From Curvularia clavata (Eukaryota), in the NCBI GenBank assembly GCA_023920165.1, contig CP089274.1, positions 5,332,001-5,396,000 of the forward strand: a DNA stretch of 64,000 bases, written 5' to 3'. The notes beneath the pieces are model-generated. The model had not been told where the DNA came from. It was given only the letters and a program-made list of their open reading frames with translations, and made no database searches. A program made the position numbers and the translations under genes. This document shows positions 1 to 32,295 of the stretch, piece by piece. How positions within the stretch are numbered: position 1 is the stretch's first letter; each line of letters begins with the position of its first letter.

Positions 1-930
1 GTCTTCATTCCCCGCAGGCTTTACACTCTCGAACCATTGCATCTGCAGCCAGCCTTCTTCCCTAGCCATGGCCAATGTTGGCTCAATTGTAGGCCTCAGT
101 TCCTCTATTGTGATATCCTGCGTGGGCGACGCCTCCAAGACGGCATTCATTGCCTTGCTCACCCATTCCTCGTATTCATCTGGCGAGATATCAACATCTT
201 TCATCCTCGAGAGGACGAGCAGAAACACGACGACAATCACGCTAGCAATTCTTGTGTCGCTAACGTCAGCAGAGGAGTGTGCGGTAGATGTGGCTCGTCG
301 TTGGCGCTTGCTGGGGGTTTCAGCTGCAGCTGCAGCCATGCGGGCTAGCAGAGGATAAATAGATTCTACACCGGTATACACATGTGGTATTACTGCTGGG
401 TATTCAAATGCTTTTGCAAGGGCTCGGATGGTGGGCATGACCCATTCAGGGGGTTCCCCATTGTTTTCATGGCCTCGCTTCGTGCTATGTGGTGTCTTTT
501 TTGCGCTCAGAGGCGTTTTAGGCGTGTTGCGTGCGGACGCAGGGGCTGAAGCAGCCGACTTTCGCGGTGTCTGGGGTTCAGAGGTGGCGAAAGGATCTGG
601 GAGTGCGCTATTCAGGTAGTTGTACAGCTTCTTGTATATGCGAGGGGGACAAGGCGGTCGTGATGCGATTGCGGGCAGATTGAGGCGCTTCTTAAGCCTG
701 TGACTATTAGCAGGATATTACATTTATACAAGGATTTCGTGATACCTTTCGCAAGCTAGTTGTGCACATGCGTATGGTCGCGCAATCTCTTCATCAGCTT
801 TCATAGACGAAGCGACTGTTTGGGAGCGCGTGAGAAGCGACAAAGCCAACTCGATCAGCTCTGGAGGAAGAGGACCGCTTAGTGTAGGGACCAGGCCTGT
901 AAGAGCCTGCTCGATGCTTGCTCGACTCAT
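1..930 (-). CDS. ORC6: Origin recognition complex subunit 6 (5' part; gene runs off the window start; introns at about 699-746 and 345-393)
   Basis: N-terminus MSRASIEQALTGLVPTL...EEIARPYACAQLACER, then exon 2 ...RPPCPPRIYKKLYNYL, matches the fungal ORC6 pattern as I recall it; GT-AG introns present. Confidence 0.8.
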
Positions 931-26798: not shown

Positions 26799-27856
26799 TC
26801 AGATTCCCTTCTTTCCTTCGACGCCCTTCCTCTCTACACCATCCAAATCCCTCAACACAGCCCTAACAGGCCAGACAAACCCTTCCTCCAGCTTCCCCGT
26901 CTTCCCTTCCTCAATCGTAACCAAATACTCCACCAGCGCCATACCCACATACGCCGCAATAGCCGTGAAAATATGCCACCAGCCATGCAATTCGAACAGC
27001 ATACCCCAGGGCATTCCAATCCAATGCTTGAATTGTAACACATATTTGCAAGCATGAAAATCAATGCTCCAAAGAAAGTACCCAAACACGCCCATCGAAA
27101 GCCCAAATGTAGCCAGATTCCCCAGCTTCTTGCGCGCCGCCTCATCAGCAACTTGCTTCTTGATGAGTTTACGCGCATTTCGCGAGACAAGATAAATCAT
27201 GATGGCAAAAGCGATCTCATGGACATAAATTTCGTCGGCCCAGACGTGGTAAATAGAGACGGGGATCAAGCTGCCCAGGATGTACAGCGTGTACTTTCTG
27301 CGCTGGGCAGGGGTAGCGTCATAGCAGAGCAGTTGGTGCAGGACAGCGCCTACGGCTAGGAACATAGACAGGTCGTCGCCCATTTGAGAATGGTACTTGA
27401 GCGTGGCGTGGAACCAGGCAGACAGGACACCTACGCCGATGAGGCCCCAGTAGGGGAAAGCGAGCGTCGAGATGAGGCCGCCTTCGGGTTTGGGCGAGAC
27501 GCGGCGTAAGCCATGGAGACCGTAGATTACTGTTTGGGATTGTGTGAGCGTTTTTCTATATTGTCTGAGGGAACCGGAAGGTCTCGGATGCACGGACCAT
27601 AGGACATGTTGGTGAGGGTGTTGATGAATTCGCCAATGTACGGGGTAATGATGTAGTCCTGGGGTTGAATTAGTTGGTTCTCCAATCACTGTCCATAGCA
27701 GAACGCAAGGGATAGAGGTACCTCTTCACAGAAGCTGTATCAGGTTAGCCACTGGCCGTCATGCAGGTACCGTGGCGATACTCACTTGTGGTTGGACGTG
27801 GTTGGACCCCATGCGCCGACCATGGGGCTTGACGGATACTCCCAACGCAATTGCAT
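26799..27856 (-). CDS. Alkaline ceramidase (Ypc1/ACER family), 4 exons including a 13-nt microexon
   Basis: WGPTTSNHNFCEEDY, EFINTLTN, SAWFHATLKY, QMGDDLSM and ELHGWWHIFT motifs. Confidence 0.9.
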
Positions 27857-28222
27857 GGTGGATTTGTGTCTAGTAAGGGCGTAGATGTGGTAGTGATGTT
27901 TACGGTGTTATCAGACGGCGAGGGAATAAAGCGAGTCTAATACGTGGAGGTCAAGACCACAAGCTATGACCAGACCAATAGCGCTAGAGGAGAGGAAAAC
28001 GCAGCAGTAACATGCAGGCAGCCTCCGTAGCTGCAGTCACCATGACAGATCTCAACATGGGACGGAATAAAGCATGCGAACCATAGTCCTTTCCGAAAAT
28101 CCAGTATCACATGTGAAAACTGTTGTACAGGTTCGTTCAATGGCAAAAAAGAATCATTGAAAGGCAGTAAGTAGTGCTACTGCCTGCAAAAGAAGTACGG
28201 AAGTTCTGTACCACAGAACCGC

Positions 28223-28228
28223 AAAAAA
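28223..28228 (-). terminator. Pol III oligo(dT) terminator of tRNA-Pro
   Basis: T6 run beginning 3 nt after the discriminator base on the minus strand. Confidence 0.75.
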
Positions 28229-28230
28229 TG

Positions 28231-28369
28231 GGGTCTTACCGCGACTCGAACGCGGGGCCTCTCGCAAGCAATGCTCGGGAAATCCCTAAGCGAGAATCAT
28301 ACCACTAGACTGTCCAATGTTAGAATTCGAATGTGCTGAATGGTGTGGTGGTTGCTTACCCATAAGACC
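28231..28369 (-). tRNA. tRNA-Pro(AGG), 3 exons (28369-28360, 28309-28284, 28266-28231); 50-nt spliceosomal-type intron plus 17-nt canonical anticodon intron
   Basis: Acceptor stem GGTCTTA/TAAGACC, D arm GTCTAGTGGTATGAT, anticodon stem CTCGC/GCGAG with loop TT-AGG-G/T, T arm CCGCG-TTCGAGT-CGCGG, C discriminator; spliced length 72 nt. Confidence 0.9.
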
Positions 28370-30438
28370 GTTGCTTTGATGAAAGAATGACAAATTTCAA
28401 AAGATATAACCATGTTCAAAAGAAGCAGTACGGTGAGTGCTGAGCAATAGCAAGGATATCTAGCTCTATTGAATCTAGTCATGACACTGAAAGGTGGGGT
28501 TGATACGGCTAAAAGATTTTGTTGGAGCTGAGCTTAGTGGGAGCCACCATTCCTTGCTTGGTAAGATGGCGGCTCAGCTGGAACACTGACGAGTCATTCA
28601 AGGCCACTTACCAAAATAATGCAGAGCTTGAGGCTTTTGAAACGATTGGACAGCTGATAGGAGCATTCGGGGTTGAGGTGATTTTCATAGCGCTCAGGAT
28701 CCAGAGGGTGATGGTGATGGTGAGCACTGTGCTTGCAGATTTTGACATACGATGCATCAGAGATCACGAACTTCTAGTTTTGTCCAGACGTTAAATTCCT
28801 GCTCGACTGAGTTGTATTCTGAACATCCTCTGTAGAAAATATGTAGAAAGTGGGGGTACACTGGAAAGAGAGATAGAACAAGGCCACCGACGCGTTCGTA
28901 TGCTTGCTCCTGAAACAAAACCATTAATAGCTTGTAAAAACACAACTTTACCTACAATTCCATGGTGCCCCTTTTCTGTCCTGTCAGGGTGCACTCACCT
29001 AGAACAGCTCAATTTCCATGTAGAACATGTATCCATTTATCCATCGTGCCTTGTGTGGCCAATGCTCAACCTCAAAACGAATATGCTGACCTTTGGGCTC
29101 AGGATGTGCCTCGGTACAAAAAATCCTCTCGAACCCTTGCGGCCACTCATACCAGAGCAGGCAACAGATCTTTTGCCAATGGCTTGCAGTGTCGACCCAC
29201 CGTGTAATATATCTAGAGAAAAACGGTTTCTACTTCGCACAAGTCCTGTTGATCGCAGTATAGGAACAGGCTAAGATCGACTTCAATGCGCAGAAAATCC
29301 AGCAAAAACCTTCTGATAATATTGGAAGACCACCTTCGAACAATTCAACATCGCGCACCTGGTGCTGCATCATCTTGATAATATCAATCGCATCCATTCT
29401 GGAGATGAGCTCACGAGATGGCCTCGCACGACACAATCCCTTGCGTCACCAAGCACAGAGGGCTGAGGACTTCCTTGCTTAGGCAAGGTTGGTACGCACG
29501 GGAACAACGACAAAACGATATGTCCCAGTCATAATGGCCCCAGAGGCCAAGAAAGTGTGCCCTGACACACCATGCATGCCGAGTTTCCAGCGCCTTGCTA
29601 TGACGATATTGCGCAGAGGCCTGAACTCGGGAAAAGACAGGACCGTGAGGCAGGCTTGCTTCTGGACCACCTCGATATTCGCTATTTGTCGCTTTCTCAT
29701 TAACTCAACGGATGCTCATCACCCGGTGCACTGCTTGTGGTGTATAGAAATGTGACATAATCCAGTTGGGTGTCTAGGGCGCGGATGCCAAGCGTACATA
29801 CTGCGAATAATTGTGCTTCCATTTCGAGGCTGTGTGGATCGTATCACCTAGACATGTCACGGATAGAATAACGTATACAGCAAGACGCCCACCCTTCAGT
29901 CACATGTTACATCGTCACAAGCAAGCTATACGACGATGCAACACGCGCTCGAATCAAAGCGATTACAAGAAAGAGAGGCTGCCGAAATAAAGACGGCGCC
30001 ACTTACGTACCATCATGCACAACACGGTTGAGGCGATCTCCGCAAACTCTTAGGCGCAGCCGTCTCCACCTCCAGCTAACCCCCAATTCCCCAGACACAA
30101 TTCTTCCGCCAATCAAGACCAATCGGAGGCCGAATCATCCTCATTTGCTCTCCGATGAGCACAACGGCCATGCTTTGGTCGGCACGTTCCCGCTAGGCTT
30201 ACGTAGGAAGTATGGCATTTTAACCAATTTAACCAACCAACGAGTGTTTCGATCGCGAACATCAGTGGAGACGCGCCTTGAGCAGGATGCCTTCGTCGAG
30301 CAAGATGTCAAGCATACCGGCTTTTAGTACCGACATGCTCGATTCCTTATAATCGAGCTTTCTTCCTCGCAGGCGTGGTTCAGTAAAGTCGCACAACTGC
30401 ACCAACCGAAGCTTGAGAGAGCTTGCCCGGTCGTCAGG

Positions 30439-32295
30439 ATGTTTTCGAAATTCCCGAAGATATACAATGTCTACTTCTTGGCAATTATTGCCACAATGGG
30501 TGGCATGCTCTTTGGTTTCGATATCTCGTCGATGAGTGCTATCATCCCAACCACTCAATACCTGTAGGTCATTCCCCGAGGACTGATTCCCGAAGTGTTC
30601 TAACAAATTTAGCGACTATTTCGACAACCCATCAGGAGTTGCTCAAGGAGCCATCGGCGCTGCCCTCGCTGCGGGCTCCGTCGTTGGCTCCATCATGGCT
30701 GGCCCAGTTTCCGACAAATTTGGTCGTCGTGATGCTCTGTTGTTTGCCTGTCTCTGGTGGCTCATTGGCACTGCTCTCCAGGTTGCTGTGACCGGAAGAG
30801 GTATGCTGATTGCTGGCCGAGTCCTGAACGGAGTGACTGTTGGTATCACCTCCTCTCAGGTGCCAGTGTACCTTGCAGAGATCTCCAAGCATTCACAGCG
30901 TGGTGCAATCATCATTATTCAGCAACTCGCAATTGAGTGGGGTATCCTTATCATGTCAGTAGAAAAGAGTCTACCGAGAGAGACCAAATTGACCCTTTCA
31001 CAGGTACTTTATTGGTTACGGATGTACATTCATTCCTGGCGAAACAGCATCCTTCCGCACCGCTTGGGGTATCCAGTTCGTTCCTTGCGTCTTGTTCATG
31101 ATCGGATTACCATTTCTCCCGGAGTCTCCCCGATGGCTCGCAAAGGTTGATCGTACCGAAGAAGCGATTCAGGTGCTAGCATCTATCCAAGCCAACGGCA
31201 ATATTGAAGACCCATATGTCGTTGCAGAGTATGAGGAAATCATGACTGTTCTCATCGCTGAGCGCCAAGCACCACCTGGATGGAAGAAGTTTGTTCTCAA
31301 CGGCATGTGGAAGCGAACTCTTGCTGGATTTTCTGTCCAAGCGTGGCAACAGCTGTCTGGAGCAAATGTGCGTCGAATGACCTCCTCCTTTTATTGAATT
31401 GAAGAAACTGACCACAGGAACAGGTTATGACATACTACGTCGTTTACATTTTCGCCATGGCTGGTTTGGAGGGAAACATTAAGCTCATCTCTTCTGGTGT
31501 GCAGTATGCCCTGTTCATCATCTTCTCCTCGATCATGTTCTTCTTTGTCGACAAGTTTGGCCGCAGGACCCTCTTGGTCTGGGGTGCAGTTGCAATGGGA
31601 ATTTGCCATTTTGTAGTTGGCGGAGTCCTTGGCGCCAACTATGAATACGTTCCTGAGGGCGTTGGCGGTGATGCCAACGTCGTTATGAAGGTCACTGGCC
31701 CACCCGCTCACACGGTTATTGCCTTTTCCTATCTCCTGATCATTATTTATGCTCTGACACTGGCACCCATTTGCTGGGTCTACGCCGCAGAGGTCTGGTC
31801 GCTCGAGACGCGTGCCTGGGGTATGGGCATTGCTGCTACTGGTAAGGAAAACCCCGTTTGATCATATTCAGGAAATCTCAATACTGACGTAAATTCCAAG
31901 GTAACTGGCTATTCAACTTTGCCATTGGTCTCTTCATACCGCCTGCGTTCGTGAATATCAAATGGGCGTTGTTCGTTGTTTTTGGCATACTTTGTCTGCT
32001 AGCGGCGACGCAGTTTTTCTTTACATATCCCGAGGTAAGATTATCTACAACTACGAATAAAGTAATGGTTTTGGCTGACTCTTCCAACCAGACTTGTGGC
32101 AAGACACTCGAGGAGGTCGAGATGCTATTTAGCAAGAACGGCCCACCTGCATGGAGAACAAAGAAGGGAAGCGACCATATCGGGCAAAACACAGAAAATG
32201 TTGCGGCTGCTCAAGCCAAGCAAGAGGCACACGCAAGGATTGAGAGAATCGCCAAGAAAGAGAAGGGAGAGACAGCGATGGCCGAGACGGTCTGA
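30439..32295 (+). CDS. MFS sugar porter, Hgt1-like high-affinity hexose transporter, 6 exons
   Basis: GGMLFGFDISS, DKFGRR (twice), PVYLAEIS, PESPRWL, QQLSGANVMTYY and YPETCGKTLEEV motifs. Confidence 0.93.

Follow-up and report, generated by a model that had tools for sequence, protein, structure and literature searches.

A gene for proline transfer RNA with anticodon AGG, tRNA-Pro(AGG), occupies positions 28369–28231 on the minus strand of a 64,000-nucleotide (nt) stretch of Curvularia clavata DNA (contig CP089274.1 of assembly GCA_023920165.1, positions 5,332,001 to 5,396,000; the whole stretch is called the window below). Direct reading of the sequence and the tRNA finder ARAGORN place two inserts of different kind within this gene. 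Exon 1, GGTCTTATGG (28360–28369), supplies tRNA positions 1–10, namely the acceptor 5’ strand GGTCTTA followed by U8, G9 and G10. It is followed by a 50-nt GT-AG intron of spliceosomal type (28310–28359), which lies between G10 and U11 and reads GTAAGC ... TTCTAAC ... CAG, with the branch A within TTCTAAC positioned 10 nt from the 3’ end. Exon 2 (28284–28309; tRNA positions 11–37) contains the remainder of the D-arm, the 5’ strand of the anticodon stem, the anticodon AGG and G37, and ends in TTAGGG; up to the anticodon it is invariant in a multiple alignment of the window and its relatives. A canonical 17-nt tRNA intron of the endonuclease (SEN) type follows G37 at position 37/38 (28267–28283), and exon 3 (28231–28266; tRNA positions 38–73) provides the 3’ strand of the anticodon stem, the variable loop, the T-arm with its B box GTTCGAGTC, the acceptor 3’ strand TAAGACC and the discriminator C at 28231. 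Position 37/38, which characterizes the canonical endonuclease intron, is held by the 17-nt intron, and the 50-nt insert lies elsewhere, at 10/11. On the same strand, a TATA-like box, TATATCTT, is present at 28401–28408, 39 nt upstream of exon 1, and a T6 run resembling an RNA polymerase III (Pol III) terminator is present at 28223–28228, 3 nt after the discriminator. The exons, the two inserts and the three splice signals correspond to the minus-strand reading given in a first-pass annotation of this DNA, which also put the mature tRNA at 72 nt; the 73 nt reported by ARAGORN include one extra genomic C.

Standard searches pass over this gene. ARAGORN calls no tRNA in the intact 64,000-nt window, and Rfam returns no tRNA match in the window either at the gathering score or at E<=10; the five weak matches seen there at E<=10 resemble small nucleolar RNAs (snoRNAs), and all lie away from the tRNA locus. 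With the 50 nt at 28359–28310 deleted by script, the locus is called tRNA-Pro(agg) by ARAGORN, which places a 17-nt intron behind G37 and reports perfect acceptor, anticodon and T stems. The first-pass annotation had described these same stems as perfect once the insert is out, and had suggested comparing a tRNA finder with and without the insert; ARAGORN, used for that comparison, makes no call in the first state and the tRNA-Pro(agg) call in the second. As a chance control, each GT..AG segment of 40–80 nt on both strands of the window was removed and ARAGORN was rerun (n=19,530). A tRNA was restored by 2 of the 19,530 removals, both at this locus: one takes out the reported insert, and the other, an artefact, makes its cut within the same gene. 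The layout is far beyond chance, and the observation is confirmed. Running ARAGORN on the intact window with long introns allowed led to a call of Pro(ggg) with an ‘intron’ of 1,798 nt; this call reuses the 3’ half of this gene and was rejected as spurious.

The gene belongs to a family. One scan of a metagenome collection, with CAG plus 22 nt of exon 2 as the query, returned 14 loci; L006 is identical to L013 and L007 to L011, leaving 12 distinct sequences in six groups. Together with the window these make seven lineages, which align to one another in the gene itself only. All 14 loci carry the 10-nt exon 1, then GT, 50–57 nt and exon 2. Six of them (L001, L003, L005, L008, L009 and L014) are orthologous, with flanks 83–96% identical over up to 1.2 kb. 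ARAGORN finds 0 tRNAs in 14/14 intact loci, so that the expectation of the first-pass annotation that standard tRNA finders would miss this class holds for the relatives as it does for the window, and Rfam at E<=0.1 gives 0 matches in the 11 of the 14 relatives’ loci that were submitted. This silence of Rfam means just that the gene escapes the standard models. Once one or two GT-AG segments are taken out, ARAGORN calls tRNA-Pro(AGG) in 15/15 cases (the 14 loci and the window), with 37/38 introns of 17–38 nt in the relatives. When the 14 loci were scanned with ARAGORN for further tRNAs, every call fell inside the tRNA-Pro gene itself.

Comparisons among the 15 loci provide evidence that the exons are maintained across the insert. 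First, the reverse complement of the first 7 nt of exon 1 is found, exactly, at the 3’ end of the gene in 15/15 loci. The acceptor strands read GGTCTTA/TAAGACC in 12 loci, GGTCGAT/ATCGACC in L007/L011 and GGTCTGA/TCAGACC in L012; among these versions, four base pairs that link exon 1 with the last exon across the insert have undergone compensated changes. Second, the T-stem pair 52–62 is compensated across further introns in the T-loop of L007/L011 and L012. Third, none of the 72 exon positions varies among the six orthologous loci; intron 1 is variable in 10 of 52 columns and a second intron, described below, in 18 of 52, with flanks that are 82–92% identical. These patterns of sequence change show a gene that is being maintained, with an insert that evolves as a spliceosomal intron would. 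The exon invariance among the orthologues and the compensated acceptor changes likewise bear out the earlier proposal that the gene is maintained rather than decaying.

The splice signals are retained in the same set of loci. Intron 1 starts with GTA in 15/15 loci (GTAAGC in the window, which fits GTRNGY) and carries the branch word CTAAC (12 loci), CTGAC (2) or CTAAT (1), with the branch A located 10–11 nt from its 3’ end in 15/15. Its interior diverges, to the point of being unalignable in L007 and L012. The window intron ends in CAG, a YAG acceptor. Orthologues with conserved exons and splice signals around a divergent intron interior had been named in advance as the decisive test of the insert, and that arrangement is found in 14/14 loci.

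Eight of the loci contain a second GT-AG segment, which must also be removed to restore the tRNA. These second introns, whose ends were not imposed by the query, terminate in CAG or TAG in 8/8 cases and have CTAAC at 10–12 nt in 7/8. L001, L003, L005, L008 and L014 (the last with its gene at 544–733, plus strand) share a 51–52-nt intron between A34 and G35, with GTAAGT, CTAAC at 10 nt and CAG or TAG, which is separated from the 17-nt intron at 37/38 by GGG alone. L007 (538–757, plus strand; identical to L011) has a 57-nt intron at 58/59 in the T-loop, with GTGAGT, GCTAAC and CAG, and L012 (483–689, minus strand) has a 60-nt intron at 55/56, also in the T-loop, reading GTAAGT ... CAG. In the five-sequence set, 0 of the 18 variable columns of intron 2 fall on the 13 signal positions (hypergeometric P=0.0015). 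L009 (524–683, minus strand), an orthologue of the five loci with the 34/35 intron, contains no intron at 34/35 and has a 37-nt intron at 37/38 in place of 17 nt. L009 and these five loci differ by the precise presence or absence of an intron, with the mature tRNA unchanged.

Two other descriptions of these introns were rejected. The five loci with the 34/35 intron might be taken for tRNA-Thr(AGT) with a single endonuclease intron of 68 nt, and for some cuts ARAGORN did offer Thr(agt); this was discarded because the body is that of tRNA-Pro and 5/5 loci retain GTAAGT, CTAAC at 10 nt and YAG. Insertion of a site-specific mobile element was discarded as well, the interiors in L007 and L012 being unrelated and generic splice signals the sole shared part.

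Introns of neighbouring messenger RNAs (mRNAs) offer a local standard for the insert. Sequencing runs X8, X9 and X12, guessed to be RNA, contain contigs that skip 52, 68 and 49 nt in neighbouring genes at boundaries of GT..AG or CT..AC, and they were treated as RNA because of those joints, none of which occur in the DNA run X4. Four neighbouring mRNA introns supported by RNA joints measure 49, 52, 68 and 89 nt. The 49-nt intron reads GTAGGT ... TTCTAAC ... TAG and the 52-nt intron GTGAGT ... GCTAAC ... CAG, and (G/T)CTAAC occurs 9–10 nt before the 3’ end in two of the four. The 50-nt tRNA insert fits these introns in size and signals, in agreement with the first-pass annotation, which had matched its length to the mRNA introns of the window.

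The family also shares features expected of transcription by Pol III. A run of at least five T residues (T5+) starts 3–13 nt after the discriminator in 15/15 loci (T6 at +3 in the window), and a TATA-like word is present 33–59 nt upstream of exon 1 in 14/15, with a TATATA column block kept in the alignment. T5 runs are found in 0 of 23 GT-AG introns, the longest run being T4. The B box GTTCGAGTC is intact in the window. The A box is split by the intron, and the DNA reads cAG followed by TCTAGTGG instead of TGG followed by TCTAGTGG. The window’s TATA-like box is a candidate TFIIIB/TBP site that would set the transcription start upstream of exon 1, and taken together these features suggest a Pol III gene whose start may be placed in that way.

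Independent sequencing runs bear on the reality of the insert. The DNA run X4, which carries another organism label and comes from another study than the window, yields a 13.8-kb contig that spans 28281 to 31000 with no indel within the 50-nt insert; one change, at 28314, lies in the contig’s intron among the differences listed. Since the insert is present without an indel in this independent DNA contig, it is not an assembly artefact, which was one of the refuting outcomes listed in the first-pass annotation. X4 also holds an 80-nt block of the tRNA gene at three times single-copy depth, and the identity of this block at that depth therefore points to a multi-copy family with gene conversion.

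The RNA-type runs document a joined form of a related gene. X8, X9 and X12, which come from two studies, each hold a contig of 1.4–4.6 kb that covers 28231–28310 with two changes inside the 17-nt intron. Past 28310, the same contigs continue with the reverse complement of exon 1 and then with a different upstream flank. They thus carry exon 1 and exon 2 directly joined, the 17-nt intron retained, and the flanks of a paralogous locus; on its upstream side this locus (...CATCAAATCACGTGTT...) is similar to six of the metagenome loci that bear the intron. This joined form is compatible with splicing but not decisive, as the paralogue may lack the insert in its DNA. X8, X9 and X12 have no contig over 28311–28504 (exon 1, insert and upstream flank), which says nothing about expression.

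Splicing by the spliceosome is the best explanation of these data, and we assign a probability of about 0.75 to the reading that the locus represents a real, maintained and probably spliceosome-dependent class of tRNA genes. Removal by the spliceosome, the identity of the polymerase and the order of the steps are inferred from sequence and conservation. The best explanation of the window locus is a nuclear tRNA-Pro(AGG) gene of a filamentous ascomycete whose precursor would contain two mechanistically different introns. For the family, it is an old intron at 10/11, common to several fungal lineages, to which GT-AG introns at 34/35, 55/56 and 58/59 would have been gained. A wider proposal is somewhat less secure, although we still consider it probable: that filamentous ascomycetes possess a conserved set of Pol III tRNA genes for whose maturation the spliceosome is indispensable, with four or more intron positions in tRNA-Pro(AGG) and two machineries acting in a fixed order.

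Several points weigh against this reading. Orthologues without the intron were out of reach of the scan, and the CAG of intron 1 in the relatives was imposed by the query and is no evidence. Some relatives have a weak 5’ splice site that lacks the usual G5/T6: GTAAAA in L005, L008 and L014 and GTAGGA in L001. An interior word of the D-arm intron, C-ATTCAGC, is kept in 9 of 13 aligned rows, including groups whose flanks are unalignable; its conservation is not what is expected of a textbook intron, and it may be a functional element or the result of common descent or gene conversion. Gene conversion could also contribute to the identity of the exons. The A box is interrupted by the intron, and for type 2 promoters it is unusual that Pol III should start 60–70 nt upstream of that box. 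X4, a close relative, contains a DNA copy with GGTTTTGTGG directly before exon 2 and no D-arm intron; since insert-free copies exist in a close relative, the intron-bearing copy need not be essential. A junction, lariat or precursor from the window locus was not seen in the RNA-type contigs. The joined-form contig extends more than 255 nt past both gene ends and is therefore a long transcript, not a Pol III primary transcript. Because the upstream neighbour in related loci of the L009 group is a divergent open reading frame (ORF), the joined contig may be an antisense transcript of an insert-free DNA copy, which is as possible as a spliced sense transcript.

Among the alternatives, the least improbable one keeps the spliceosomal intron and changes the polymerase. 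The tRNA would then be part of an RNA polymerase II (Pol II) transcript, either a long non-coding RNA or the 5’ portion of the gene that follows downstream, spliced co-transcriptionally and cut out by RNase P and RNase Z, with the Pol III features as leftovers. We regard this as unlikely. Several observations speak in its favour. The tRNA lies upstream of a ceramidase-like gene on the same strand, and an RNA contig of that gene extends as far as 28208; upstream of the tRNA, at 28785–29349, there is a spliced transcript of low depth from the minus strand; the paralogue’s joined form sits inside RNA contigs of 1.4–4.6 kb; and a same-strand ORF also follows the tRNA in the L009 group. However, contigs can show neither the strand nor the ends of a transcript. 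Moreover, Pol II would have no use for a T5+ run in 15/15 loci, a TATA-like box at a near-constant distance in 14/15, or the absence of T5 from all 23 GT-AG introns.

It is less probable still that these are dead or dying copies, in which an inert 50-nt insertion has entered a multi-copy tRNA gene and the exons appear intact through recent origin or gene conversion. The insert-free paralogues in the DNA of a close relative, the identical 80-nt block at threefold depth, which indicates homogenisation, and the failure to see RNA from this locus in the RNA-type contigs are all in keeping with such decay. A recent origin, however, is hard to reconcile with an insert common to seven lineages with unalignable flanks, which must be old. 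The 10-nt exon 1 is still perfectly complementary to the 3’ end of the gene from beyond 50–57 nt of divergent sequence, with four compensated changes; GT is retained, as is the branch word at its fixed distance, although the interiors drift; and in six orthologues 0 of 72 exon columns vary, compared with 10 of 52 for intron 1 and 18 of 52 for intron 2. Conversion from an intron-free donor would, in addition, delete the intron and not keep it.

Removal of the insert by the tRNA splicing endonuclease, at a fold resembling a bulge-helix-bulge, is very improbable. Introns of that type have each splice site in a 3-nt bulge beside a 4-bp helix, an arrangement common to their homologues. The fungal endonuclease measures from the mature domain to 37/38, and the conserved GT, CTRAY at 10–11 nt and AG are spliceosomal signals, which recur at the three other intron positions. 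A crude bulge-helix-bulge score, admittedly a rough test, is no better at the true boundaries than at random boundaries in 14/15 loci (fraction scoring at least as high, 0.11–0.71), and minimum-energy folds have no shared structure at the junctions. L001, with 8/8 pairs in the crude helix score, is in line with an endonuclease substrate, and ectopic introns in the D- and T-arms of tRNAs do exist in some eukaryotic genomes, according to the portions available of two sources (PMC3728597, PMC4090602).

Equally remote is the idea that the insert is never removed and that the locus serves as a TFIIIC-bound boundary element or as the source of a 5’-truncated tRNA-like RNA whose start lies within the insert: in the DNA the B box is intact, as is most of the A box, and a normal A-box-directed start would, by the geometry of type 2 promoters, fall inside the insert, but neither role accounts for the complementarity of exon 1 to the 3’ acceptor strand with its compensated changes or for the kept GT and branch word.

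If the spliceosomal reading is correct, expression of the gene might proceed as follows. Pol III, positioned jointly by the TATA-like box, the B box and an A box that is intact for the most part (cAG followed by TCTAGTGG), would start a few nt upstream of exon 1 and stop at the T-run. The spliceosome would remove the 50-nt U2-type GT-AG intron, joining G10 to U11, and in relatives also the introns at 34/35, 55/56 or 58/59. The D-stem, the D-arm and the elbow could form only once the 10/11 intron is gone, and the endonuclease ‘ruler’ would then be able to act on the mature domain and cut the 37/38 intron, with tRNA ligase sealing the halves. The endonuclease measures from the mature domain and would therefore cut at 37/38 after spliceosomal joining. 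RNase P, RNase Z and CCA addition would finish the tRNA. The form found in the RNA contigs, joined at 10/11 and unspliced at 37/38, would fit this order if it was made at the RNA level.

Spliceosomal introns in genes for non-coding RNA (ncRNA) are already known. Tani and Ohshima (1989, 1991) and Canzler et al. (2016) reportedly described mRNA-type introns in the U6 gene of Schizosaccharomyces pombe and other fungi, and Bhattacharya et al. (2000) are said to have described spliceosomal introns in ascomycete ribosomal DNA (rDNA). The portions available of the sources cited here report that fungal U6 small nuclear RNA (snRNA), a Pol III product, has spliceosomal introns, up to four per gene, and that they are also present in U1, U2 and U5 snRNA and in ascomycete rDNA (PMC5855946), as well as in fungal U3 snoRNA genes (PMC5832005). 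For tRNA the literature reads differently. In the text available, a 2023 review, ‘The life and times of a tRNA’, brings up the spliceosome solely as a contrast (PMC10275265); the word is absent from a 2014 review of tRNA introns, which lists ectopic eukaryotic tRNA introns in nucleomorphs and Cyanidioschyzon merolae only (PMC4090602); and a 2025 paper calls the eukaryotic intron types unrelated (PMC12530127). A full-text literature search whose coverage excluded most subscription papers returned no report of a spliceosomal intron in a tRNA, the phrase hits being ‘non-spliceosomal’ only; the first-pass annotation, which knew of no such report, agrees with this within that coverage. Thus, spliceosomal introns in ncRNA genes have precedents, and tRNA is a host class for which the searched literature describes no case.

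The closest precedent is U6. Similar to U6, the family described here consists of small, structured ncRNA genes of Pol III type with short introns that have canonical splice and branch sites and are otherwise unconserved; several introns per gene are possible, and gains are lineage-specific. The window gene has the U6-like combination of a TATA-like box, a B box and a T-run with spliceosomal signals, and is probably transcribed by Pol III. However, unlike U6, its product is a tRNA and not a component of the spliceosome, so reverse splicing at the catalytic centre offers no obvious origin for the intron. The tRNA precursor, moreover, also needs the endonuclease and ligase pathway, and its intron splits the internal A-box promoter. 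The introns of U3, of U1, U2 and U5 and of rDNA likewise have fungal ncRNA hosts and were recognised computationally, by motifs and phylogenetic pattern; none of these hosts is a tRNA, and none has two splicing chemistries in one 72-nt product.

Introns outside 37/38 are also a feature of tRNA genes in C. merolae, nucleomorphs and archaea. As described in the source portions available, these introns occur in the D-arm, anticodon loop and T-loop, number up to three per gene and are missed by tRNA finders, much as here. They differ in mechanism: those introns form bulge-helix-bulge folds cut by the tRNA endonuclease, whereas the present family has GT, CTRAY at a constant spacing and AG, and its members share no fold. 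The canonical eukaryotic intron at 37/38 is of the same kind as the 17-nt intron of this gene; the 50-nt insert differs from it in position (10/11) and in its spliceosomal signals.

Textbooks and current reviews keep spliceosomal and tRNA introns as separate worlds. If the spliceosomal reading is true, tRNA would join the ncRNAs invaded by spliceosomal introns, and the spliceosome would routinely act on tRNA precursors, with two splicing systems in series on one small RNA. The gene would also provide a natural Pol III substrate besides U6 for splicing without a cap or a Pol II tail, and comparisons of closely related genomes could date the repeated gain of introns in a gene of 72 nt. Fungal tRNA catalogues would be systematically incomplete, which would bias tRNA gene counts and estimates of codon adaptation, and the capacity for decoding proline codons could be tied to the activity of the spliceosome.

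The tRNA gene sits in a gap of ~2.5 kb between two genes. Downstream of it and on the same strand lies the ceramidase-like gene (ORF up to ~27725, minus strand), and on the other side of the gap lies a sugar-transporter-like gene (from ~30330, plus strand). A nearby ORF of 876 amino acids is similar to clusters from Ascomycota that bear the name of an Aspergillus-type spindle pole body protein; at a score of 0.92 this is no more than a lead, by which the window would probably belong to Ascomycota. In its 5’ part, the ceramidase-like gene contains an 11-nt micro-exon at 27724–27734 on the minus strand: contigs of three RNA-type runs replace 27661–27785 by 11 letters that are found at 27724–27734. 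One RNA contig of this gene ends 23 nt below the 3’ end of the tRNA, at 28208, although contigs cannot show a true start. The low-depth transcript at 28785–29349, which shares the strand of the tRNA and lies upstream of it, comes from a single run; it contains the 89-nt GT-AG intron, at about 28910–28998, and has no open frame across its whole 476 nt, the longest stop-free stretch being ~75 codons.

Further features are found around the related genes. The insert-free X4 paralogue with GGTTTTGTGG would hold two G-U pairs in its acceptor stem if its 3’ strand is TAAGACC. The six orthologous loci share a conserved block, CCATCAAATCACGTGTTAC, with the palindrome CACGTG, located 10–25 nt upstream of exon 1, and a flank similar to the one bearing this block is also present on the paralogue in the RNA contigs. 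A fragment of L007 matches ‘S1/P1 nuclease’ only. Downstream of the tRNA by ~230–330 nt, L009, L014, L003, L001 and L005 share a second conserved block of non-coding appearance (…ACCAATGACTTTGAGGACCGTTGCTTCGGG…), which has no Rfam match and precedes a GNAT-like ORF on the same strand.

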